Below, piece after piece: positions 1,692 through 12,686 of a stretch of DNA of 12,686 nt. Positions within the stretch are counted from its first letter, which is position 1; each line of letters opens with the position of its first letter. Source of the DNA: a virus; UHGV virus genome UHGV-0143361. The stretch is one strand, 5' to 3'. The translations under genes were made by a program, and so were the position numbers. Under the pieces are notes generated by a model. That model saw only the letters and a program-made list of their open reading frames with translations. It was not told where the DNA came from and ran no database searches.

Positions 1692-2294
1692 TTACGCGTT
1701 AAGAAGGGTCAGGACGCGCTCACGCGCCATACGTTGATTAATGGCTTTCTGTAGCGCGCCGCTGTTGCGCGCCTCCTGCCATGCTTTCATGGAGCGAACA
1801 GCCGAGTCAGCCTCCTGATAGGCAGGATATGTCACAGGACTGACATCCAGCAGACGGGAAAAGCGGGTTATCTCGCGAATAACAACCCCGTCCTCATCCT
1901 GATACCACTCCTCGCCGTCACGGGCGACACGGAAAGCAAAAGATGACTGGTTAATATCTCCACGTTGCATCGGGGCCAGCACCAGATCACGAATGGTCTG
2001 TGTCTCCGGAGCCTGGATGTCATAGCGCAATCCGCGCTCATCAACTGAAAGATTCAGCGTGCCTGCTGCACTACGCCCAAGAATAAAATTAGGATCGTGG
2101 TTAAACAGTGCGCGTACATCATCACCAAGCACATCGTCAAAAGCGCCGGGCCGGATGATTTCGCGGAATGAACCAAATATCAGCTCAGAACGACAGTCAA
2201 ACACCGATCCATAACCGATAATGTGCGCAGGGTTATCGTCATGCCGCTCAGCACGCACCTCACCGCTGTAACAACGGATTTCACGGTCATTCAT
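1692..2294 (-). CDS. Prohead maturation protease, HK97 family (S78 peptidase)
   Basis: ORF 1692..2351 trimmed to the ATG at 2292-2294 (MNDREIRCY...), which has a GAGGGA SD 7 nt upstream and overlaps the portal stop. Alternative starts exist at 2309 and 2351. Position between portal and capsid, about 200 aa, with protease-like HIIGYGSVFD and SSFAF segments. Confidence 0.85.
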   Translation of the reverse strand: MNDREIRCYSGEVRAERHDDNPAHIIGYGSVFDCRSELIFGSFREIIRPGAFDDVLGDDVRALFNHDPNFILGRSAAGTLNLSVDERGLRYDIQAPETQTIRDLVLAPMQRGDINQSSFAFRVARDGEEWYQDEDGVVIREITRFSRLLDVSPVTYPAYQEADSAVRSMKAWQEARNSGALQKAINQRMARERVLTLLNA

Positions 2295-3513
2295 TGGTTT
2301 TTCCCTCATCTTTTTTTGGGGGCTTAAAATCTCCTGCCGGGTTAGCAGCATTCACGCTTACCAGCATCTCATCCAGCCCTTCAACCGGATTCATATCCTC
2401 GAATGCGCGGGCCTCATTACGGCTCATCCATCCATCGGTAATAGCGAAGTGATAGAATTGCGCGCGCTCCTGCGGAGTTCCGCGTAAAAGCCCCGTCAGA
2501 TTGAACCTGACGTAATACCCGGCGGCTAACTCAGCGCGGGTAAACAAGCGACGGTTAAGCTCCTGCTCCCAGTTCGTCACCCACGGCATCATCGTGTAGC
2601 GGACAAACTGAATCGCCTGCGCAGAAATATTGGAGAAGGTGGCTTTTTCGAGGTCATTAATCATGTGCGCAGGAATATTGAAAATACCGGCAATCATTGA
2701 ACGGTTCAGTTTCATCATGTCAATGATCTGAGCGTCAACTGGCGACACAGTCAGTGCCTTGTAATCCAGATCGGCTGGCAGCAGCATGGTTTTGTTTTCC
2801 TGGCTGCGTAACGCCTGCGATGCCTTCTGCCACTGATCTTTAAGCCAGCCCCAGCTGTCCTTATTGAGTCCGCTTTTAACGGATACTATCCCCGCCGGAC
2901 GGGCATTACCGCTGAAGAAGCTTTCTGTGTATTTCTGACCGCTCATCCCCATGCCTATTGTTTCGGCATGTTGCATAATCGGACTCAGCCCCATCTTCTG
3001 ATTATTACCCAGCGCACGGATGTGGATCATATCGTCGGGGCTGATCGCAAACGCCCCATATTCGTTGTACAAACCGTAGGTGTATCGGCCACCAGTATTC
3101 ATCAGCGTCGTTTCCCACGGCATACAGCAATCCAGGGATATGACTTCACCGCGACGATTACGTTTCACCCAGGTATACCCATTCCCCCAGCCAAGGATGT
3201 GACGTTGCTTCAGTTCGCGCCATTTGTAACTGGTTTGCCAGGTATTGGGCTCATCATGAACCAGATAAAACGCCGGATGATCGCGTGCGGGCTCAACCTT
3301 CCCATTGTGCCTGCGCATAACATGCAACGGCATCTGGGCAAGGCTGGAAGACAGGACATAGATACAGGAATACACCGCAGCCAGTTTCATCGCAGTTTCA
3401 GGACTGACATAAACGTCTGCCCGGAACAGCCCATCAGTATCAACGGCATCCCCGGTTATCGGGGTGGAAGGATTCTCCAGTGATTTACTTCTGAACAGAG
3501 CATCAAGCAGCAC
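2287..3513 (-). CDS. Portal protein, HK97 family
   Basis: 408 aa between terminase large subunit and protease. The start as given in the ORF track is a GTG at 3511-3513; the exact start is uncertain. Confidence 0.9.
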   Translation of the reverse strand: MLLDALFRSKSLENPSTPITGDAVDTDGLFRADVYVSPETAMKLAAVYSCIYVLSSSLAQMPLHVMRRHNGKVEPARDHPAFYLVHDEPNTWQTSYKWRELKQRHILGWGNGYTWVKRNRRGEVISLDCCMPWETTLMNTGGRYTYGLYNEYGAFAISPDDMIHIRALGNNQKMGLSPIMQHAETIGMGMSGQKYTESFFSGNARPAGIVSVKSGLNKDSWGWLKDQWQKASQALRSQENKTMLLPADLDYKALTVSPVDAQIIDMMKLNRSMIAGIFNIPAHMINDLEKATFSNISAQAIQFVRYTMMPWVTNWEQELNRRLFTRAELAAGYYVRFNLTGLLRGTPQERAQFYHFAITDGWMSRNEARAFEDMNPVEGLDEMLVSVNAANPAGDFKPPKKDEGKTNE

Positions 3514-3664
3514 GCGTCCCCCTTCTGGCCATAGCCAGTGCGCCCACCAGCAGTAAACCGCCGGACAGCATCAGAGCCGGAGCCATACCAAACTGCAGGT
3601 AAAACCCGCACGTAAGCAGGCCAAAACCAGCCAACCCGATAACATCAGCAATTAGTGATTTCAT
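3503..3664 (-). CDS. Small hydrophobic ORF (53 aa), putative membrane peptide between terL and portal
   Basis: My own translation: [53 protein letters not shown]. Its ATG (3662-3664) overlaps the terL stop (3661-3663) as ATGA, and its 3' end overlaps the portal GTG start. It is missing from the ORF track only because it is under 60 aa. Confidence 0.3.
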
Positions 3665-5394
3665 AGAATTAAGAGAACATCGTCCGGATCAAGAGATGAG
3701 AGGAAATCGTCGGGTTCTTTGAGCATTGCCCGACCGATCGCCATAATCAGTGCAACCGCACCATCGATTTTGTTTTCCGCCTGCTCCTTGACAGGCTTCA
3801 CCACATCATCGTTACCCGGAATGGTTTTGCCGACCACGTTGCCGATACACCAGGTCATGATGGGATTGCCATCATGATGAAAGCGCCCCGATTCAATTGC
3901 CGCTTCCAGCTCTTTCATCGGGTCGGACATGTTGGTGTAGTTCTGAATGATGGTGATGGGGTTCAGGTCTTCATCAGCAAGGTCATGCGACAGCCCGGTC
4001 GCCCCGAAGGGGTCGATGGGTGACTCACTGACCGGGCTGATTTTGTTCGCCGCTTTGGCCTCCTCGAGGATGTAGCGATAATCCACCTCCGCACCAGCGG
4101 TAACAGTCAGAACGCCCATTTCCACCCATTTCTGAAAGCGTTCGGCTGTCCGGCGATCTTCATTTTTCTCGACGCTGTACACCGTGTCATACGGTACCCA
4201 GAAACGCGGGGCCACACTGTAGTAATGCGTTTTACCGTCAATCTCGCGGGTATAAAGTCGCGCCATGCTGTTCATATCCAGCTTACGCGCCAGGTCAAAG
4301 GCCAGAATGCACGGCTGCCCCTCGAACTGCTCAAGGGTCAGTGATTTATCCTCGCAGCTCTGCCAGCTCACCAGGTTGAAATACGCCGAACGCGCCGACA
4401 CCCAGATATTGAGGTGTTTTGTTTTAAAGACGTTTGCCAGACGGGCGTTATTTTTCGCACGCTGTTGCTGACTTAACAAAAACTCACGGTAAACCGACAC
4501 CCCGATATTCGGGTTGGCTTTTTCCAGCACCTGTGGGTTGGTCCAGTCGTCACCTTCGTCAACGGTATAGATGATCCCGAACAGTTCATCGTTGGGTACC
4601 GAACCGTTGAGCATCTCGATAACTTCCCGCCGCTTGTCGTAGCACGGCCCCTCAATGTTGTACCCGGCGGTGGTGATGGCCCACATCAGTGGCTGACGTC
4701 GCGCCCCCATCCCGGTAAGCATCGTGGTATAAAGCGCATCGGTGGCGTGCTCGTGATATTCATCCACCACCGCACAGTGGGGTGATGATCCATCACCGGG
4801 GTTACCGATCAGCGGTTCAAACCGCGCGCCATCCTCCGGACGGTTCATGTTTGAGGCGTTAACCTCAATCCCGAACGCTTCCGTCAGCATGGGTGTGCGT
4901 TTACACATCAGTCGCGCCGGGCGAAAGACTTCCCACGCCTGTTTCTCTGTCGTGGCACCGGAATACACTTCCGCGCCAAACTCGTTATCACAGGCAAAAC
5001 AATACAGGGCGACACCGGCAGAGATTGCCGATTTGCCGTTCTTACGGGGGATTTCGGTATACACCTCCCGGAAGCGGCGCAGCCGGGTACCTTTATTGAC
5101 CCAGCCAAACGCACAGCAGATCACAAAGAGCTGCCACGGCTCCAGCGTGATGGGCATCCGTTTGAATGCCCACTCACCCTTGGTATGCGGCAACAGCTGA
5201 ATAAATTTGGCGGCCCGTTCAGCCAGGTCCTTGTCGAAGCGGTAACGAAACGACTTACTTTTTTCCGCCATCAGGTCATCAAGATGGCGCTGGCAGGCCT
5301 GAATCACAAACTGGCAGGCCACAATCTTTCCCCGCACGACATCACGGGCATACTGATTGGCAGCATTTACGTTGGGGTAAGATTTCCGGCTCAT
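3661..5394 (-). CDS. terL: Terminase large subunit
   Basis: 577 aa with ATG at 5392-5394, lying between terS and portal. Family recognised from the overall sequence (ATPase-like N-terminal half, nuclease-like C-terminal half). Confidence 0.93.
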
Positions 5395-6369: not shown

Positions 6370-6519
6370 TGCATAATCCTCTTGGATGGTTCGCGTGCGA
6401 TACGTGGCATCCTTCTCAGAATCGAATCGCACTCCACTCCGGTTTTGCCATAAACGATCTTTTATGCTTCGCTGGATGTAGTTGATAGTTGTTGAAACTC
6501 AATGAACAGGAGTTCACAA

Positions 6520-6855
6520 ATGAATAGTTATGAATGGGAATGGCTTTTAAACAAAGATGACACCCTATGCTTTTTCCCCGTAGGCCATTCTGTAGAAGGT
6601 AATTACAAAATTCACTTTGAGTTGAGCGGTAGTTGTAACCTTAGAGTCTCAGATGCTGAATGGCATGGTAAACCTGTACTGCTGTTCGAATACTTCGATG
6701 AAGATGATGACCGCCCTGCAATAATCGAAATATTAGAAACAACTACTACAACTGTGGAGGCGATGATCGGGCATCTGAATAGTATCGATAGTATTTACCA
6801 TGAACCGATTTACAAAGCGGTTTACGAGTGGGCCGTAAAGTTTTTCTATCGATGA
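6520..6855 (+). CDS. Hypothetical protein, about 111 aa, acidic (cargo gene 1)
   Basis: ORF 6502..6855 trimmed to the ATG at 6520, which has AGGAG 7 nt upstream. Plus strand, opposite to the phage operons, and visibly AT-rich. Contains an acidic stretch (EYFDEDDDRP) and a TTTT run. No family recognised by eye. Confidence 0.55.
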   Translation: MNSYEWEWLLNKDDTLCFFPVGHSVEGNYKIHFELSGSCNLRVSDAEWHGKPVLLFEYFDEDDDRPAIIEILETTTTTVEAMIGHLNSIDSIYHEPIYKAVYEWAVKFFYR

Positions 6856-6955
6856 TACTTCGTTATCTTGCTGGCATTCACAATACCTTTACATACTAAT
6901 GACATGCCAGCACAATACTGTCACTTACAACCGTTCGGATTACCTAGAGAAAAGT

Positions 6956-7525
6956 ATGATTCAGGATTTACTGATCGAAGCAATTAGTCACGATAGGATG
7001 CATAAAAAGTTAAATGAACTGAATTGCTACTTCTACAATCGCAAACATGAAACTCAAATACGTGATGAGTTAGTTGTTATTCTCAATCAAATCAGCACAC
7101 TAACTGCTTTAAGTGAGCATCCAAAACTCGGTATCGGCGCTGTTGACATATCACTTTATAACCAGTCGATATTAACGTCTGAACATAATGGCAATGTTGC
7201 AACCATCGAGATCAAACACCATTACCCAAAGGATTTACTTTATCGGCAAGTTCAAGAAGACATCATTTCCGATATTTCAAGAGTAATAGTTTCACCAACT
7301 ACACATTTTATCCATATAATCCAGCAAAGAACTATGATTAATACTCCTTCTTTTGGCCAAGTGAAATTCCTTGAACGTGATGCAAGTGATATCAGCACTT
7401 ATGTGCAATGCCTTGAAGAGCTAAGTTCCTTCCCCAGTATCTTTCATAAAAAAAGTATATGTATTGAGGTACTTGGTGAAATTATGTCGACATATACCTT
7501 TAACGTATATTCATTTGACAACTGA
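6956..7525 (+). CDS. Hypothetical protein, about 189 aa, weak PD-(D/E)xK-like pattern (cargo gene 2)
   Basis: ORF 6899..7525; start is either the ATG at 6899 (no SD) or the ATG at 6956 (A/G-rich leader), so the 5' end is uncertain. Co-directional with cargo gene 1 and AT-rich. The pair GAVDIS ... ATIEIKHH gives a D...E-x-K spacing compatible with a PD-(D/E)xK nuclease core; this is inference only. Confidence 0.5.
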   Translation: MIQDLLIEAISHDRMHKKLNELNCYFYNRKHETQIRDELVVILNQISTLTALSEHPKLGIGAVDISLYNQSILTSEHNGNVATIEIKHHYPKDLLYRQVQEDIISDISRVIVSPTTHFIHIIQQRTMINTPSFGQVKFLERDASDISTYVQCLEELSSFPSIFHKKSICIEVLGEIMSTYTFNVYSFDN

Positions 7526-7546: not shown

Positions 7547-7804
7547 TTAATGGTTAGTTCTCTCTGCATCTATTTTACGAATATCAGCTTTATCCCGATT
7601 GCAGTTAGCCAGTGCAGACAACAGACTCACATTCAGCTCCAGGCTGGCACCATAAGTCAGAGGATTTGGTATGAACGGTACAGGTGTTTCAGAAGTCAGA
7701 CTAGTCGGTAATGTTGTAGCCGGAGTGCTCACGTAAACTGTCCGCGTACTTCCGCAACCGCTCAGCAGCGGCAGCAGGCACAAGGCGTGCAGCACAACCA
7801 TCAT
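7547..7804 (-). CDS. Rz1: o-spanin (Rz1-like outer-membrane lipoprotein)
   Basis: ORF 7547..7870 trimmed to the MM start at 7804. Signal peptide with lipobox LLSGC followed by a Pro/Thr-rich mature region (PATTLPTSLTSETPVPFIPNPL). Starts in an alternate frame inside Rz and extends 154 nt past the Rz stop. Confidence 0.7.
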   Translation of the reverse strand: MMVVLHALCLLPLLSGCGSTRTVYVSTPATTLPTSLTSETPVPFIPNPLTYGASLELNVSLLSALANCNRDKADIRKIDAERTNH

Positions 7805-8081
7805 CCGCAACAGCCACTTTGATATCTTTCTGGGTTCTCTGTGACTCCAGTGCGATCTGCTGTTTTGCATGCTGGTTAACCTCTATAACTGTATTGACGA
7901 TTTGCAGTGATTGCAGGACGTTACGGGTAATGGCTGTTGCAGATTCAGCATTTTGTACAGCCTCATCAGCACGTTTCTTTTCGTGCTGATATTTGCTGTA
8001 GTAGTGGTTGGCAGACCAGATGAAAGAACCGATGACAGTAAAGAAGAATGCAGCGATAACCAGCTTATAGCTCAACTTCAT
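7701..8081 (-). CDS. Rz: i-spanin (Rz-like)
   Basis: 126 aa with an N-terminal TM anchor (LVIAAFFFTVIGSFIW) and a charged helical periplasmic domain. Its ATG (8079-8081) overlaps the endolysin 3' end, the usual lysis-cassette position. Confidence 0.8.
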   Translation of the reverse strand: MKLSYKLVIAAFFFTVIGSFIWSANHYYSKYQHEKKRADEAVQNAESATAITRNVLQSLQIVNTVIEVNQHAKQQIALESQRTQKDIKVAVADDGCAARLVPAAAAERLRKYADSLREHSGYNITD

Positions 8082-8541
8082 TTACCACCCCACCAGCCTC
8101 TTTAAATCGGGCAATCAGGTCACCGATTTTATGTTCATACTGACCGTAACCTGCACCAGGTAACGACGCCCAGATATTGCTGCAACGGTCGATAGCCTGA
8201 CGAATATCACCGCGATCAATCATCGGTAAAGCGCCACGCTCTTTAATCTGCTGCAATGCCACTGCGTCCTGGCTTTTGGGGGAGAAGTCTTTCAAACCAA
8301 GCTGTTTACGGTAAGCATCCCACCAGCGTGAAAGAAGCTGATAACGCCCGGCGGCTGTTGATTTGAGTTTTGGGTTTAGCGTGACAAGTTTGCGAGGGTG
8401 ATCGGAGTAATCAGTGAAGAGTTCACCACCGACAATAACGTCATAACCGTGGTTACGTGTCGGTTGTCGTCCGTTATCCGTTCCTTCTGACCAAGCCACC
8501 ATATCAAGGAAAGCTTTACGCTGGGAATTTAGTACCTGCAT
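8065..8541 (-). CDS. R: Endolysin, lambda R-like lytic transglycosylase
   Basis: 158 aa. From memory it is near-identical over most of its length to phage lambda R (RKAFLDM.AWSEGTDNGRQ.TRNHGYDVIVGGELFTDYSDHPRKLVTLNPKLKST.AGRYQLLSRWWDAYRKQLGLKDFSPKSQDAVALQQIKERGALPMIDRGDIRQAIDRCSNIWASLPGAGYGQ). GGAG SD 7 nt upstream of the ATG at 8539-8541. Confidence 0.95.
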   Translation of the reverse strand: MQVLNSQRKAFLDMVAWSEGTDNGRQPTRNHGYDVIVGGELFTDYSDHPRKLVTLNPKLKSTAAGRYQLLSRWWDAYRKQLGLKDFSPKSQDAVALQQIKERGALPMIDRGDIRQAIDRCSNIWASLPGAGYGQYEHKIGDLIARFKEAGGVVNEVEL

Positions 8542-8544
8542 AAA

Positions 8545-8871
8545 TTACTCCTTAGAGCCACCAAATTTGTTACCGATTACTCGCATTGCAGCCCCACGAA
8601 TAGCATCGACACCGATCAACCCAACACCACCACCAATGGCAACAGAAAGCGATTTAGGCCATCCGACATACTCAAGAGCGGATGCAAAAGTCAGCGTCAG
8701 AGCGCCACAGAGTAGAATTTCGAGCGTTTTTCGCTTCCAGCCACCACCACCGCCAAAATAGGCGATGCGCAAACCAGCCATAACGATCGACATAATCACT
8801 GCACCCAGCGGTGTGTCTCCACGCCACCAGCTCTGGACCAAGTCCAGCCAGGTATTTGGGTTATGAGGCAT
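8545..8871 (-). CDS. Holin (three predicted hydrophobic segments)
   Basis: ORF 8545..8967 trimmed to the ATG at 8869-8871 (MPHNPNTWLD...). The track's GTG start lies inside the upstream terminator hairpin and overlaps the methyltransferase gene. Three hydrophobic stretches and a charged C-terminus, placed immediately upstream of the endolysin. Confidence 0.7.
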   Translation of the reverse strand: MPHNPNTWLDLVQSWWRGDTPLGAVIMSIVMAGLRIAYFGGGGGWKRKTLEILLCGALTLTFASALEYVGWPKSLSVAIGGGVGLIGVDAIRGAAMRVIGNKFGGSKE

Positions 8872-8914
8872 TTCGTCATCTCTCACCTCGCGATATTTGC
8901 GGGTGCTGTGTTGG

Positions 8915-8940
8915 AAATAAAAAGGCCACGCAACGTGGCC
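8915..8940 (-). terminator. Intrinsic terminator between the methyltransferase and holin genes (tR'-like position)
   Basis: Perfect 7-bp stem GGCCACG/CGTGGCC with a 3-nt loop (8924-8940), followed on the minus strand by UUUUUAUUU (8915-8923). Lies between the MTase stop (8948) and the holin ATG (8871). Confidence 0.6.
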
Positions 8941-8947
8941 ACCAGAA

Positions 8948-10000
8948 TTATTTCCCCACCAGTTCACTTACCTCTTTCACCGTCTGATTAAACCGCTCTG
9001 ACTCAAGTTCAACACCTAACGCCCGACGTCCCAGCGCCATTGCTGCTTTTATTGTGGAACCGGATCCCATAAAAAAATCAGCAACCAGATCACCTGGTCG
9101 ACTACTGGCATTGATTATTTGCCGGAGCATATCCGCAGGCTTCTCACACGGATGTTTACCCGGGTAGAACTGAACGGGTTTATGCGTCCAGACGTCGGTA
9201 TAAGGCACGGAAACTGATACGGAGAAATAGCGCCGGAGAGTTTTAAACTCATCCAGCAATTCAGAATATTTGCGATTCAGTGAATCATAAGATGCCACCA
9301 GCTGGTGGTGTGGTTGTTCCAGTTGTTGTTCCTGAAACTTCTCTGCCGCTATACGGGAAAACAGTGCCTGTAACTTCCGATAGTCAGCCTCATTCGGCAA
9401 CTGCCACTGACTGGCACCAAACCAGTGGGAAACCATATTTTTCTTACCTGTGGCTTCGGCAATTTGTTTTGCCGTTATACCCAGTTCGGCACGAGCATCC
9501 CTGAAATACGATATCAGCGGTGCCATTATGTGCTGTTTGAGTTCCCTTTCTTTTGCCGCATAGCCGTCACTTTTGCCGCGATATGGCCCCTGGTAATGTT
9601 CAGCAAACAGAACGCGCTCTGTGGCAGGAAAATATGCGCGCAGACTTTCTTTATTACACCCATTCCAACGTCCGGACGGCTTCGCCCAGATGATATTGTT
9701 AAGCACGTTGAAACGTTCACGCATCATGATCTCAATATCAGATGCCAGGCGATGCCCACAGAACAGGTAAAGGCTTCCGGCAGGTTTCAACACCCGCCAG
9801 AACTGGGCCAGACAGTGGTCCAGCCACTTAAGGTAATCTTCGTCCCCTTTCCACTGATTGTCCCAACCGTTGGGTTTCACCTTGAAGTAAGGCGGATCGG
9901 TAACAATCAGGTCAATGGAATCATCAGGCAGGGACTGAATAAAATGCAGGCAATCAGCGTTGATTAAATCAACACTGTTTATTTTTACAGTATTTTTCAT
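8948..10000 (-). CDS. DNA methyltransferase, beta-class amino-MTase (N6-adenine or N4-cytosine), apparently orphan
   Basis: 350 aa. Motif IV DPPY near the N-terminus (IVTDPPYF) and motif I FxGxG near the C-terminus (DFFMGSGST), the permuted order that defines beta-class amino-methyltransferases. No restriction endonuclease gene is adjacent. Confidence 0.9.
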   Translation of the reverse strand: MKNTVKINSVDLINADCLHFIQSLPDDSIDLIVTDPPYFKVKPNGWDNQWKGDEDYLKWLDHCLAQFWRVLKPAGSLYLFCGHRLASDIEIMMRERFNVLNNIIWAKPSGRWNGCNKESLRAYFPATERVLFAEHYQGPYRGKSDGYAAKERELKQHIMAPLISYFRDARAELGITAKQIAEATGKKNMVSHWFGASQWQLPNEADYRKLQALFSRIAAEKFQEQQLEQPHHQLVASYDSLNRKYSELLDEFKTLRRYFSVSVSVPYTDVWTHKPVQFYPGKHPCEKPADMLRQIINASSRPGDLVADFFMGSGSTIKAAMALGRRALGVELESERFNQTVKEVSELVGK

Positions 10001-10673: not shown

Positions 10674-11693
10674 TTGGATAAGTTTGATGAGATTCATGTA
10701 GACATTGAATCTGAGCAGCAAGCCTTCGATTTGCTTGAAAGCTATCTTGATGGTTATGGTTTACCTGACAGTTTAAGTTTCAACGGATGGCCAAACCTTA
10801 CCATCAGATTAACCGGTGAAAAATTCAACAGATCGCTAACACCTTCAGTTATGAAGGGATTTGTTGAAATGCAAGCTCAAATCAACAAATCATATGCCCT
10901 TGCCAAGTACGGTGTCCCTGACGTCCGCAAACTGACCAAAGAAGAACTTGATGCCCTAGAAATAGAAGTTACGGTAGAACAGGGTTCTTCAATAGTAGAA
11001 ATCAACATTGATGGCTTTTTAACCAAACTCACACAGGAACTTGTTGGTAAAATGAACGCAACTGAGATCATGTTTACTGTTCTCGGCGCAGCAGTCATCT
11101 GGGGCGGAGTAACAGTATTTAAACGGTTCTTGGACAACCGTAAAGATATTCGCCTTGCAGAAATTGCTAAGGATGGAGAGAAAGAACATCTCCGGACTAT
11201 GCAGATCATGAGCGAGCAAGAAACTAAACGCCTGCGGGTTATTTCAGAAATGATTGCGGAAAAACCACTTCTCGATAACATGGACCGTATGTCGTATGAC
11301 GCTAAAACCCAAATGGTCAAATCCTTTGTGCGTTCAGATAACGCTCAAATTGATGGCGTTACTATTGATTCTGAAATGGCGAAAGAGTTGGTTACGAATG
11401 CTCGTAGACGTTCATCAGAAATGAGGATTGATGGTATTTACCGAATTGAAGAAGTCAATAATACTGACCCAGAGAGTTTCAAAGTTAAGGTCCGACGCGT
11501 AGATACCGACCAACGTCTAACCTGCGTAGTTCAGGATGTTTTCCTTGATGAATCCGGAAACAAAGAAGCATTGCAGCGAGCTGAGTGGGAAAGAAAGCCT
11601 GTACATTTGAGCATTAACGCAAAACACGTCGATGGTGACATTAAGTCAGCAGTAATTCTCTATGTTCGAGATGTGGAACAAAAGCCCGAGTAA
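10674..11693 (+). CDS. Hypothetical single-pass membrane protein, 339 aa (cargo gene, TTG start)
   Basis: Only in-frame start after the upstream stop is TTG at 10674, with GAGGA 7 nt upstream. One clear TM helix (IMFTVLGAAVIWGGVTVF, about residues 133-150) followed by KRFLDNRKDIR, and a charged, helix-rich C-terminal domain of about 190 aa. Plus strand, AT-rich, convergent with Q. No family recognised. Confidence 0.6.
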   Translation: MDKFDEIHVDIESEQQAFDLLESYLDGYGLPDSLSFNGWPNLTIRLTGEKFNRSLTPSVMKGFVEMQAQINKSYALAKYGVPDVRKLTKEELDALEIEVTVEQGSSIVEINIDGFLTKLTQELVGKMNATEIMFTVLGAAVIWGGVTVFKRFLDNRKDIRLAEIAKDGEKEHLRTMQIMSEQETKRLRVISEMIAEKPLLDNMDRMSYDAKTQMVKSFVRSDNAQIDGVTIDSEMAKELVTNARRRSSEMRIDGIYRIEEVNNTDPESFKVKVRRVDTDQRLTCVVQDVFLDESGNKEALQRAEWERKPVHLSINAKHVDGDIKSAVILYVRDVEQKPE

Positions 11694-11707: not shown

Positions 11708-12085
11708 TCAATCTTTAATTTCGGGGTCCATCTCTAGACTAATTTCCAGCATCGATAGGCAGCCATCAATAAACCCCTCAGCCATCTGTATCTCAATGCG
11801 TATTAGTTTCTCATCCTTTTTACGAGCCTTGGCGAGCTTTCTTTTAGAGATACCGTATAGGTAATGGGCAACAAGAAGCGAATGTTCGTCCGGCCTTTTT
11901 TGCCTTAGACGAGCAAGACAACCTTCAATAATTAATGCATCACTATCTGAACATGCCTGACGTGTTTTGCTTGTATAGGGAAGAAGCCCTTTAAACCCAG
12001 CAGCTATAGGAGAATAGTCTACTCCTGAACTATCACTCGCCGCCCATGCTCCCCAACGATCCAGAACCATTTGAATATCACGCAT
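11708..12085 (-). CDS. Q: Late-gene antiterminator Q (Phage_antitermQ family, QuuQ/QuuD-like)
   Basis: ORF 11708..12100 trimmed to the ATG at 12083-12085 (MRDIQMVLDRWGAWAA...), with a GGAGA SD 7 nt upstream. The N-terminus MRDIQMVL.RWGAWAA...IAAGFKGL matches my recollection of E. coli prophage Q homologues; about 125 aa. Confidence 0.85.
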   Translation of the reverse strand: MRDIQMVLDRWGAWAASDSSGVDYSPIAAGFKGLLPYTSKTRQACSDSDALIIEGCLARLRQKRPDEHSLLVAHYLYGISKRKLAKARKKDEKLIRIEIQMAEGFIDGCLSMLEISLEMDPEIKD

Positions 12086-12102
12086 CAACTTTCTCCACAA
12101 AA

Positions 12103-12230
12103 TCAGGCCAGCACGCCAATTGCCAGCGCACGATCGATAAAACGAAATATCAGCTCCAGCTGAGAGCCATACTTTTCTTCAAATACCACGGTATCCGCAT
12201 GCAGCTCGTCGTGATGCTTTCTGCACAAAG
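12103..12230 (-). pseudogene. 3' fragment of a phage gene upstream of Q, truncated at the junction
   Basis: A minus-strand frame ends ...TVVFEEKYGSQLELIFRFIDRALAIGVLA* at 12103-12105, 17 nt before the Q start, in operon-like spacing with E. coli-like codons (CTG, CGT, GCG). It has no start because the sequence upstream of about 12230 is antisense to rimO. Confidence 0.3.
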
Positions 12231-12231
12231 G

Positions 12232-12636
12232 CAGCACGAAGAGGTCATGCGCTTTGTAGATGAGATGGAGTTCGAGCGTCTTGGCGTATTTACCTACTCA
12301 GCAGAGGAAGATACTCCGGCGGCAGATTTCCCGGATCAGATCCCGGAGGAGGTGAAGGAGGAGCGCCGCGACGAGATCATGGAGCTCCAGCAGGAAATTG
12401 CCTTTGAAAAGTCCGAATCCATGGTAGGACGAGTTCTGGATGTTATGATCGAGGGCAAGGTGGCTGACGAAGCTGCTTATGTGGGAAGAACCTACATGGA
12501 TGCCCCGAATGTAGATGGATATATCTTTGTTAACAGTGGTGAACTCTTTATGTCCGGTGATTTTGTCCGGGTGAAGGTCACTGGTTCCAATGACTATGAT
12601 CTGATCGGGGAGGTATACGATGAATCTGCCGAATAA
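12232..12636 (+). pseudogene. rimO: rimO (ribosomal protein S12 methylthiotransferase) 3' fragment with TRAM domain, 5'-truncated
   Basis: The C-terminal part of ORF 12046..12636 reads ...FERLGVFTYSAEEDTPAADFPDQIPEEVKEERRDEIMELQQEIAFEK...GRTYMDAPNVDGYIFVN...VRVKVTG..YDLIGEV, matching the RimO/MiaB C-terminus. The conserved GFPGET radical-SAM segment expected just upstream is absent in all frames. Codons (GAG, AAG, ATC, CTC) differ from the phage genes. Confidence 0.7.
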
Positions 12637-12686
12637 ACTGACCGTGCTGCGGGTGATCATGATCCCGTTTTTTGTAGCTGCACTTC
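12620..12686 (+). CDS. pgsA: CDP-diacylglycerol--glycerol-3-phosphate 3-phosphatidyltransferase (PgsA), 5' partial, runs off the window
   Basis: ATG at 12620 with a strong GGGGAGG SD 6 nt upstream, overlapping the rimO stop. Reads MNLPNKLTVLRVIMIPFFVAAL, a PgsA-like N-terminus. The rimO-pgsA adjacency is typical of Firmicutes. Confidence 0.6.
   Translation, partial: MNLPNKLTVLRVIMIPFFVAAL

Follow-up and report, generated by a model that had tools for sequence, protein, structure and literature searches.

A conserved small gene between terL and the portal gene of a putative SfV-like Escherichia coli prophage encodes a predicted two-helix membrane hairpin related to YmfR

Introduction

Small genes lying between the large terminase gene (terL) and the portal gene are known from several phages. 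In phage lambda this slot is occupied by W, the product of which (gpW) is a soluble head-completion protein. Phage SPP1 carries three small open reading frames (ORFs 3, 4 and 5) in the same place; these short ORFs are dispensable and their role is unknown (PMC6316719). Phage Sfi21 has orf59, a gene of the DUF1056 (PF06341)/phrog_1142 type, which specifies a protein of 59 amino acids (aa) with two hydrophobic helices and is located between terL and a portal gene of the HK97 type. In Escherichia coli K-12, the e14 prophage carries ymfR (60 aa) between remnants of the terminase (aaaE) and portal (beeE) genes, whilst in other strains ymfR is found between intact terL and portal genes. Here we examine a comparable element in a stretch of 12,686 nucleotides (nt) from UHGV virus genome UHGV-0143361, the whole of which is referred to as the window, and which reads by sequence as an SfV-like E. 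coli prophage. The element, termed the micro-ORF, is a 53-codon frame between terL and the portal gene that had been picked out by an earlier, sequence-only reading of this DNA.

The expression of ymfR has been recorded once in the sources consulted: its RNA was increased (log2 4.5), together with that of the rest of e14, under an SOS-inducing compound (PMC10012262). With respect to sequence, the family to which the protein of the window belongs is phrog_7105 (RefSeq protein WP_000838374.1), from which it shows no differences. We describe the conservation of the micro-ORF, its relationship to YmfR, its junctions with both flanking genes and its distribution, and we weigh what its product might do.

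Results

A conserved reading frame between terL and the portal gene

The comparisons reported below, taken together, make it very probable that the micro-ORF is a genuine gene of the late head operon, that it belongs to a recognized family, that its junctions have the anatomy of translational coupling and that the start of the portal gene is correctly annotated. The relevant features are as follows.

3503..3664, minus strand: micro-ORF, ATG start, 53 codons plus TGA, two-helix hairpin protein of the phrog_7105/YmfR-like family
3661..3664, minus strand: ATGA overlap of the micro-ORF ATG with the TGA of terL, a termination–reinitiation junction (sequence ...aattctATGAaa)
3590..3655, minus strand: predicted helix 1, codons 4–25, glycine-rich, with conserved D7, G10, G13, G20 and Y22 (AlphaFold2)
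3527..3586, minus strand: predicted helix 2, codons 27–46, with conserved G35 (AlphaFold2)
3517..3526, minus strand: Shine–Dalgarno (SD) sequence of the portal gene, AGAAGGGGGA, spelled by micro-ORF codons Arg47-Arg48-Gly49 (anti-SD pairing)
3503..3513, minus strand: 11-nt overlap of the micro-ORF end with the portal gene, the GTG of which is 3511..3513 (ORF coordinates)
3661..5394, minus strand: terL, 577 aa, upstream coupling partner (TerL_ATPase and TerL_nuclease matches)
2287..3513, minus strand: portal gene, 408 aa, GTG start, HK97 family, downstream coupling partner (Phage_portal 2.9e-98; TIGR01537 portal_HK97)

The 53-aa ORF and its two overlaps were found much as the sequence-only reading had described them: the frame lies on the minus strand, its start codon and the terL stop share the sequence ATGA, and at the other end it runs 11 nt into the portal gene, which opens with the GTG at 3513.

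Relatives were retrieved by the portal protein and not by the ORF itself; this gave 80 viral contigs (the closest 80 loci of the portal-anchored scans, with portal identities of 89–100 %), which together with three annotated records made up 83 loci. The 53-codon frame was intact in all 83, amongst which there were 34 distinct nucleotide haplotypes. The pooled Nei–Gojobori ratio of non-synonymous to synonymous substitution (dN/dS) over codons 1–50, a segment that lies outside the portal overlap but does include the SD-encoding codons 47–49, was 0.26 in the frame of the micro-ORF, compared with 1.04 and 2.30 in the other two frames. On one common set of 62 haplotypes, the micro-ORF had a ratio of 0.28, compared with 0.11 over the 150 codons at the 3' end of terL and 0.06 over portal codons 5–154. 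Because dN/dS is low only in its own frame, the peptide is, on this sequence evidence, under purifying selection, albeit less strict than that acting on its essential neighbours. Conservation of the frame in relatives, which the sequence-only reading had named as a check, was thus upheld, with 83 of 83 frames kept and own-frame ratios of 0.26–0.28.

This conservation matters, as the ORF and its composition alone amount to no more than chance in this DNA. There are 83 ORFs of ≥ 40 aa in the window, and the hydrophobicity of the micro-ORF is matched by several non-coding frames (grand average of hydropathy 1.13 for the micro-ORF and up to 1.18 elsewhere); hydrophobicity was accordingly rejected as coding evidence, and the reality of the gene rests, at the level of sequence, on its conservation.

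The gene is already known to annotation pipelines

It had been suggested that the micro-ORF was unannotated, and this did not hold. An identical sequence is deposited in both NCBI and UniRef, under the name 'hypothetical protein' or 'uncharacterized protein' and from at least 1000 contigs, and PHROG already has a family for it. In RefSeq the gene is called in hundreds of E. coli genomes. The RefSeq PGAP call WP_000838374.1 (E. coli MINF_9A) has the same coordinates, overlaps and portal start, and the gene is also called in Edwardsiella phage EPP-1. The junction of micro-ORF and portal gene occurs in 893 of 5426 complete E. coli genomes; 29 of the 30 records listed carry a 'hypothetical protein' under the junction match, and the remaining match covers the portal gene only. 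As an object, then, the gene is not new, but belongs to known and uncharacterized families (phrog_7105, in a superfamily with YmfR).

The micro-ORF is absent from some older or automatic phage records, SfV being an example. In the SfV genome (NC_003444, our locus L002) it is intact at 2289–2450 and 94 % identical, yet it is omitted from the annotation; the portal gene of this record (orf3) is started 48 nt too far upstream, at a GTG at 2392. That upstream GTG was created by a synonymous change, GGC>GGT, in micro-ORF codon 35.

A predicted two-helix hairpin related to YmfR

The window protein matched the phrog_7105 profile ('unknown function') over its full length by hidden Markov model (HMM), with residues 1–52 on profile positions 1–52 of 52 (E = 9.2e-22). 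No family was found for it in Pfam at E ≤ 1 or in PADLOC at E ≤ 0.01, and NCBIfam likewise gave no match. A profile search of 1.84 billion representative proteins gave 120 clusters (50 % identity) at E ≤ 1e-3, nearly all of 48–60 aa and aligned end to end; none of these 120 hits was a Rosetta-stone fusion to portal or TerL. In an alignment of 58 diverse members, with 29–74 % identity to the window protein, G35 was invariant, G13, G20 and G26 were conserved in ≥ 90 %, and D7, G10 and Y22-L23 were common. All 58 matched phrog_7105, 34 matched phrog_502 (best E = 9e-12), 22 matched phrog_4810 and six matched phrog_1142 (best E = 8.6e-6).

AlphaFold2, run with a 45-sequence alignment, predicted helices at residues 2–25 and 27–47 with a mean predicted local distance difference test (pLDDT) score of 88, and above 90 in helix 1. 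Helix 2 is clearly hydrophobic (17-residue segment 30–46, free energy −0.3 kcal/mol, on the scale of Hessa et al. 2005). A Foldseek comparison of the model with the PDB gave nothing at E ≤ 0.001, as expected of a bare hairpin. The basic C-terminus proposed earlier is a property of the family, members of which have on average 2.3 lysine plus arginine residues against 0.24 aspartate plus glutamate residues after residue 46, and this charge fits the positive-inside rule. Of the one or two transmembrane (TM) helices that had been suggested, two are predicted as helices, although the first is only marginally hydrophobic. A small membrane protein, as the sequence-only reading had it, is therefore supported as far as sequence goes by the frame-specific selection, the intact frames, the glycines in register and the predicted hairpin, with membrane insertion itself a prediction. 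A possible lipoprotein signal at LLTC was considered and rejected, as Cys19 varies (S, A or G in relatives) and the −1 residue is non-canonical.

A named relative is YmfR. Both proteins are two-helix hairpins with G-x-x-G-x6-G-x-[YW]-L in register, and in both cases the C-terminal codons encode the SD sequence of the portal gene. An hhalign comparison of the two families gave 94.8 % probability (E = 5.4e-8 over 52 columns, glycines in register), a score to be read with the compositional bias of TM sequences in mind. YmfR itself matched phrog_502 at E = 7e-28 and phrog_7105 at 0.007, whilst the match of the window protein to phrog_502 was weak (E = 1e-4). Judged by these profiles, the micro-protein is homologous to YmfR of the K-12 e14 prophage, with membership at the level of a superfamily and outside phrog_502 proper. 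The differences are nevertheless considerable: pairwise identity is ∼28 %, YmfR is set apart by a YPP turn and by a tail that extends further at the C-terminus, ymfR possesses an SD sequence of its own and follows terL after an 11-nt gap instead of an ATGA overlap, and the portal protein that accompanies YmfR is only 29 % identical to that of the window. The junction of ymfR and portal gene was found in 1343 of the 5426 complete E. coli genomes. In the e14 prophage of K-12 EMG2 (locus L090, 2101–3838) ymfR is intact, and the flanking terminase and portal genes are truncated pseudogenes.

The Sfi21-type gene of the same slot differs in having its own SD sequence and short gaps rather than overlaps. 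The hhalign probability against the Sfi21-type (DUF1056) alignment was 0.5 %, which is a weak test given the Neff of 1.2 for that alignment, and the DUF1056 Pfam HMM was matched by none of the 58 relatives. As such, we regard DUF1056/Sfi21 orf59 as an analogue in position and architecture and do not claim homology. Lambda gpW, unlike the micro-protein, has no hydrophobic hairpin, and Pfam and PHROG searches showed no similarity between the two.

The portal start and the anatomy of coupling

The sequence-only reading had also allowed that the 5' end of the portal gene might be mis-called, with the true start further downstream, and this can be rejected. The 20 nt before the portal GTG contain AGAAGGGGGA, for which pairing with the 3' end of 16S rRNA is calculated at −10.8 kcal/mol. 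Portal N-termini align from their first residues (MLLDALF..LENP in the window; VFLDAMF, MIFDKLF, VIFDALS, MLNRLF and, for the e14 type, VFFSGLF), some homologues start with ATG at the same place, and the phrog_12 alignment begins at portal residue 2. The next in-frame ATG is at residue 42, and a start there would delete a conserved segment. Furthermore, we found no portal homologue that reads upstream through the micro-ORF, a pattern that the sequence-only reading had held to count against the ORF; the sole longer annotation is SfV orf3. Sequence alignment and SD pairing thus agree that the annotated portal GTG at 3513 is correct.

At the other end, no SD sequence is present in the 20 nt upstream of the micro-ORF ATG (duplex energy 0.0 kcal/mol). 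The absence of this signal and the ATGA overlap with the terL stop lend anatomical support to the translational coupling that had been proposed. Because the micro-ORF has no SD sequence, starts on the terL stop and carries both the SD sequence and the GTG of the portal gene, ribosomes leaving terL would be expected to translate the micro-ORF next and then the portal gene, and the micro-protein would be made late, at roughly the levels of TerL and portal.

The codons that form the portal SD sequence, Arg47-Arg48-Gly49, read AGA AGG GGG. Codon 47 is AGA in 33 of the 34 haplotypes and codon 48 is AGG in 32 of the 34, and AGA or AGG account for only three of the 60 arginine codons in terL and the portal gene. 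A parallel exists in the YmfR family, where the tail is variable and the invariant final GG is encoded by GGTGGAGGT, its portal SD sequence. Folding of the mRNA gave z = −0.44 for the portal start and z = +1.09 for the micro-ORF start; as neither value is significant, there is no evidence of a regulatory RNA structure or of masking of the SD sequence at these sites. An Rfam scan of the whole window likewise returned no family. A programmed frameshift fusing the micro-protein to the portal protein (AGGGGG...GCU UGA, prfB-like) was considered and rejected, as the spacing from SD sequence to stop is wrong and the frame offset varies, being 1 in the window, L086 and L088, and 2 in L084, L085 and L091.

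Linkage to the portal gene and distribution

In all four of the distant members that were examined (35–52 % identity), the ORF lies immediately 5' of a Phage_portal gene, overlapping by 4 nt upstream and by 4–17 nt downstream. In one metagenomic relative, L085, six genes stand between terL and the micro-ORF, which still overlaps the portal start. The inserted genes (L085 927–5004) encode 99, 472, 458, 119, 70 and 104 aa and have no Pfam hits. On this sequence evidence the micro-ORF travels with the portal gene, being directly 5' of it in every relative bearing it that we examined.

Comparison with the e14-type module points the same way. The window terL is 97.3 % identical to the e14-type terL over nt 1–1673, after which similarity stops ∼20 codons before the stop; beyond this point the micro-protein is 28 % and the portal protein 29 % identical to the e14-type counterparts. 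The mosaic breakpoint lies inside terL (window 3661–3720 against L091 3180–3240). As read from these alignments, E. coli prophage mosaics swap the C-terminal ∼20 residues of TerL together with the micro-protein and the portal protein, as a single block.

Portal-anchored retrieval in three clades recovered a hairpin ORF upstream of the portal gene in 85 of 86, 84 of 85 and 81 of 81 loci, the last of these being the DUF1056-type (Sfi21) clade. The two exceptions were an IS100 insertion and HK97 itself, in which terL and the portal gene overlap directly with no such ORF. The first is locus L093 (E. coli Res13-Lact-PEB21-38-A, 618–2419), where IS100 (istA/istB) has inserted at the very boundary of the micro-ORF and the portal gene; with the portal gene cut off from its upstream coupling partner, the prophage is probably defective. 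Across the range of portal identity, a hairpin ORF was present in four of 14 phages sampled by hand, the sample on which prevalence among distant phages rests, and absent from the other ten. The four were Synechococcus phage Yong-L1-251, Ralstonia YO137_1, Vibrio K341 and Burkholderia vB_PR2b. In vB_PR2b (L269) a 186-nt 'gap' at 403–588 holds an unannotated 61-aa two-helix ORF, which starts 4 nt before the end of terL and stops 5 nt before the portal start.

The premise of the sequence-only reading, that terL and the portal gene are normally adjacent, is thus correct for HK97, but not for the large clade of the window, for e14-type modules (ymfR) or for Sfi21 (orf59). Because it is absent from HK97 and from many distant HK97-type modules, the micro-ORF is an accessory rather than a core gene.

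A genome scan with one family alignment gave only ten Enterobacterales loci. Five separate chromosomal copies of the micro-ORF were observed in a single genome, that of Symbiopectobacterium purcellii (NZ_CP189882.1, L259–L263), which suggests multiple related prophages.

Other features of the window

The minus-strand gene order is probable HNH endonuclease, probable small terminase, terL, micro-ORF, portal gene, probable prohead protease and probable major capsid gene, with a lysis cassette and an antiterminator Q gene further along the window. Family-library scans covered terL, the portal gene, the holin and Q, and other names within the window were read from translations; the remaining head-module names are those given by RefSeq in an E. 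coli locus of 99.7 % identity. The lysis genes are as follows.

8545..8967: Phage_holin_3_1 holin (Pfam scan)
8065..8541: probable endolysin ORF (read from translation)
7547..8081: probable Rz/Rz1 ORFs (read from translation)

An island of low G+C content (37–40 %, compared with ∼52 % in the flanks) at 6502–7525 contains two plus-strand ORFs (6502–6855 and 6899–7525) and sits between the HNH/terminase genes and the lysis cassette. Neither ORF had a match in Pfam or PADLOC, and the island looks like moron or defence cargo. A second such region, 10674–11693 (41–43 %), holds a plus-strand ORF of 339 aa, for which we found only a sub-threshold FNIII-A_GpJ hit and no PADLOC hit. At the right end, positions 12259–12686 are unmatched in the 5426 complete E. 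coli genomes, and matches to 11900–12686 end at 12258. The plus-strand ORF at 12046–12636, which has a TRAM_2 domain like the RimO C-terminus, directly adjoins the antiterminator Q gene (11708–12100, minus strand). The right end of the window looks like a foreign or chimeric junction.

Discussion

What the micro-protein does can be approached by analogy. The role that we favour, at a probability of only about 0.3, is that of a membrane-embedded accessory of portal or prohead assembly. The hairpin would insert in the inner membrane with its basic C-terminus in the cytoplasm, as the model and charge distribution suggest, and would probably act within the membrane via the conserved glycine face formed by G10, G13, G20 and G35. 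As an accessory factor it may place or nucleate portal and prohead assembly at the inner membrane, either through direct contact with the portal protein or because its synthesis tethers the head-operon mRNA to the membrane co-translationally. The model for such a role is the membrane portal-assembly factor of phage T4, gp40, a phage inner-membrane protein linked to the portal at the point where the prohead is nucleated. In T4, the initiation of assembly needs a membrane protein (the 'membrane scaffolding protein') that interacts with the connector, and according to the same review membrane-associated prohead assembly has not been shown outside T4 (PMC3185693). Unlike the micro-ORF, the T4 factor is not encoded directly upstream of its portal gene, and the likeness is offered as a hypothesis.

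Several observations weigh against this role. Linkage to the portal gene could be a matter of mere physical position, the independent evidence that it is more than this being the single locus L085. By codon usage, the basic residues at the C-terminus are partly constrained as nucleotides, through the SD sequence, and not as protein. Membrane insertion is a prediction, equally hydrophobic chance ORFs exist, and the glycine-rich helix 1 is only marginally hydrophobic, with a summed free energy of +2.7 kcal/mol on the same Hessa et al. scale. Only ∼15 residues are predicted outside the membrane, which leaves little surface for a soluble portal protein. The dN/dS of the micro-ORF is three to five times that of its neighbours, as expected of an accessory function, HK97, like many phages of its type, builds heads with no gene of this kind, and the SPP1 ORFs in the same slot are dispensable (PMC6316719). 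Finally, literature searches yielded no experiment on a member of the family and no functional work on YmfR, DUF1056 or any equivalent, with YmfR appearing only in gene lists.

Other explanations fall into two kinds, the first of which accepts the peptide and gives it a different task. A host-directed membrane accessory of the 'moron' type, acting in superinfection exclusion, in the block of a membrane defence effector or in late membrane energetics, with adjacency to the portal gene a matter of history, is a credible though doubtful alternative. Exclusion factors are common amongst the small inner-membrane proteins of prophages, with T4 Imm and HK97 gp15 as examples, and PHROG places phrog_502 in the class 'moron, auxiliary metabolic gene and host takeover: membrane protein'. 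The accessory distribution (with absence from HK97 and from ten of the 14 sampled phages), the dN/dS above that of the structural neighbours and a protein predicted to be almost wholly embedded in the membrane, for which intramembrane partners are most plausible, are also in keeping with it. The locus nevertheless lacks the marks of an independent insert. There is no SD sequence, one has to go ∼500 nt upstream, into terL, to reach a promoter-like site on the same strand, and a lone terminator-like hairpin within the ORF is weak and occurs at chance frequency for the region; the G+C content is 55.6 %, compared with 54.5 % and 51.5 % in the neighbouring genes, whereas the genuine low-G+C inserts of the window are elsewhere and on the other strand. 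Position is fixed down to 35 % identity, with overlapping stop and start codons, PADLOC gave no hit, and a coupled late gene would be silent in the lysogen, where exclusion normally acts. A part in lysis, as a holin, pinholin, antiholin-like or lysis-timing factor outside the lysis cassette, would suit the small size, the two predicted TM helices and the charged C-terminus, and three of the 58 family members weakly match Phage_holin_3_6 (best E = 0.003, below the curated cut-offs). We consider this very improbable, since a complete cassette is already present in the window ∼4–5 kb away (7547..8967), the family is tied to portal genes and not to endolysins, and no significant holin-family match was seen in Pfam or PHROGs.

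The second kind denies the peptide a function, or the gene its existence. The micro-ORF might be a translational-coupling leader that sets the stoichiometry of the portal protein, its peptide being produced incidentally and tolerated, having drifted to a membrane-soluble sequence that does no harm. The missing SD sequence, the overlaps at both ends in the phrog_7105 members examined, the portal SD sequence inside the ORF with its codons fixed at the nucleotide level, and the invariant C-terminal GG of YmfR that doubles as a portal SD sequence would all suit such a leader. It is made improbable by purifying selection in the frame of the peptide (0.26, against 1.0 and 2.3, across codons 1–50, SD codons 47–49 included) and by a Gly/Asp pattern that is kept down to 29 % identity and into YmfR. 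Moreover, HK97 couples terL to the portal gene directly, no stable mRNA structure covers the portal start (z = −0.44), and in Sfi21 and e14 the ORF has an SD sequence of its own. That the micro-ORF is a chance frame in a non-coding spacer next to a mis-called portal start deserves hardly any weight. ORFs of such length, some of them equally hydrophobic, do arise by chance in the window, and in the SfV reference annotation the gene is missing and the portal gene begins further upstream; that start, however, is a longest-ORF artefact of a synonymous change, the portal N-terminus is conserved from residue 2 behind a strong SD sequence before the GTG, and all of the conservation evidence speaks against a chance frame.

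Should the proposed role in portal assembly apply, a broader possibility arises, which we consider rather unlikely: that the YmfR and phrog_7105 hairpins are portal membrane anchors or nucleators, and that a large group of HK97-type phages of Proteobacteria start prohead assembly or DNA packaging at the inner membrane. The glycine face might then mediate oligomerization of the hairpin under the dodecameric portal. If true, this would extend a paradigm confined to T4 to HK97-type phages, and would concern prophages in up to ∼40 % of complete E. coli genomes (a figure obtained by adding both junction counts, with no correction for overlap). Inducible SfV-like and e14-type E. coli prophages make the membrane-assembly hypothesis easy to test; as the last codons of the micro-ORF double as the ribosome-binding site of the portal gene, the design of any knockout or tag must respect them. 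For annotation, the SfV reference record is shown to omit the gene and to misplace the portal start. Together, the micro-ORF family and ymfR represent a very common class of small proteins tied to portal genes in E. coli.

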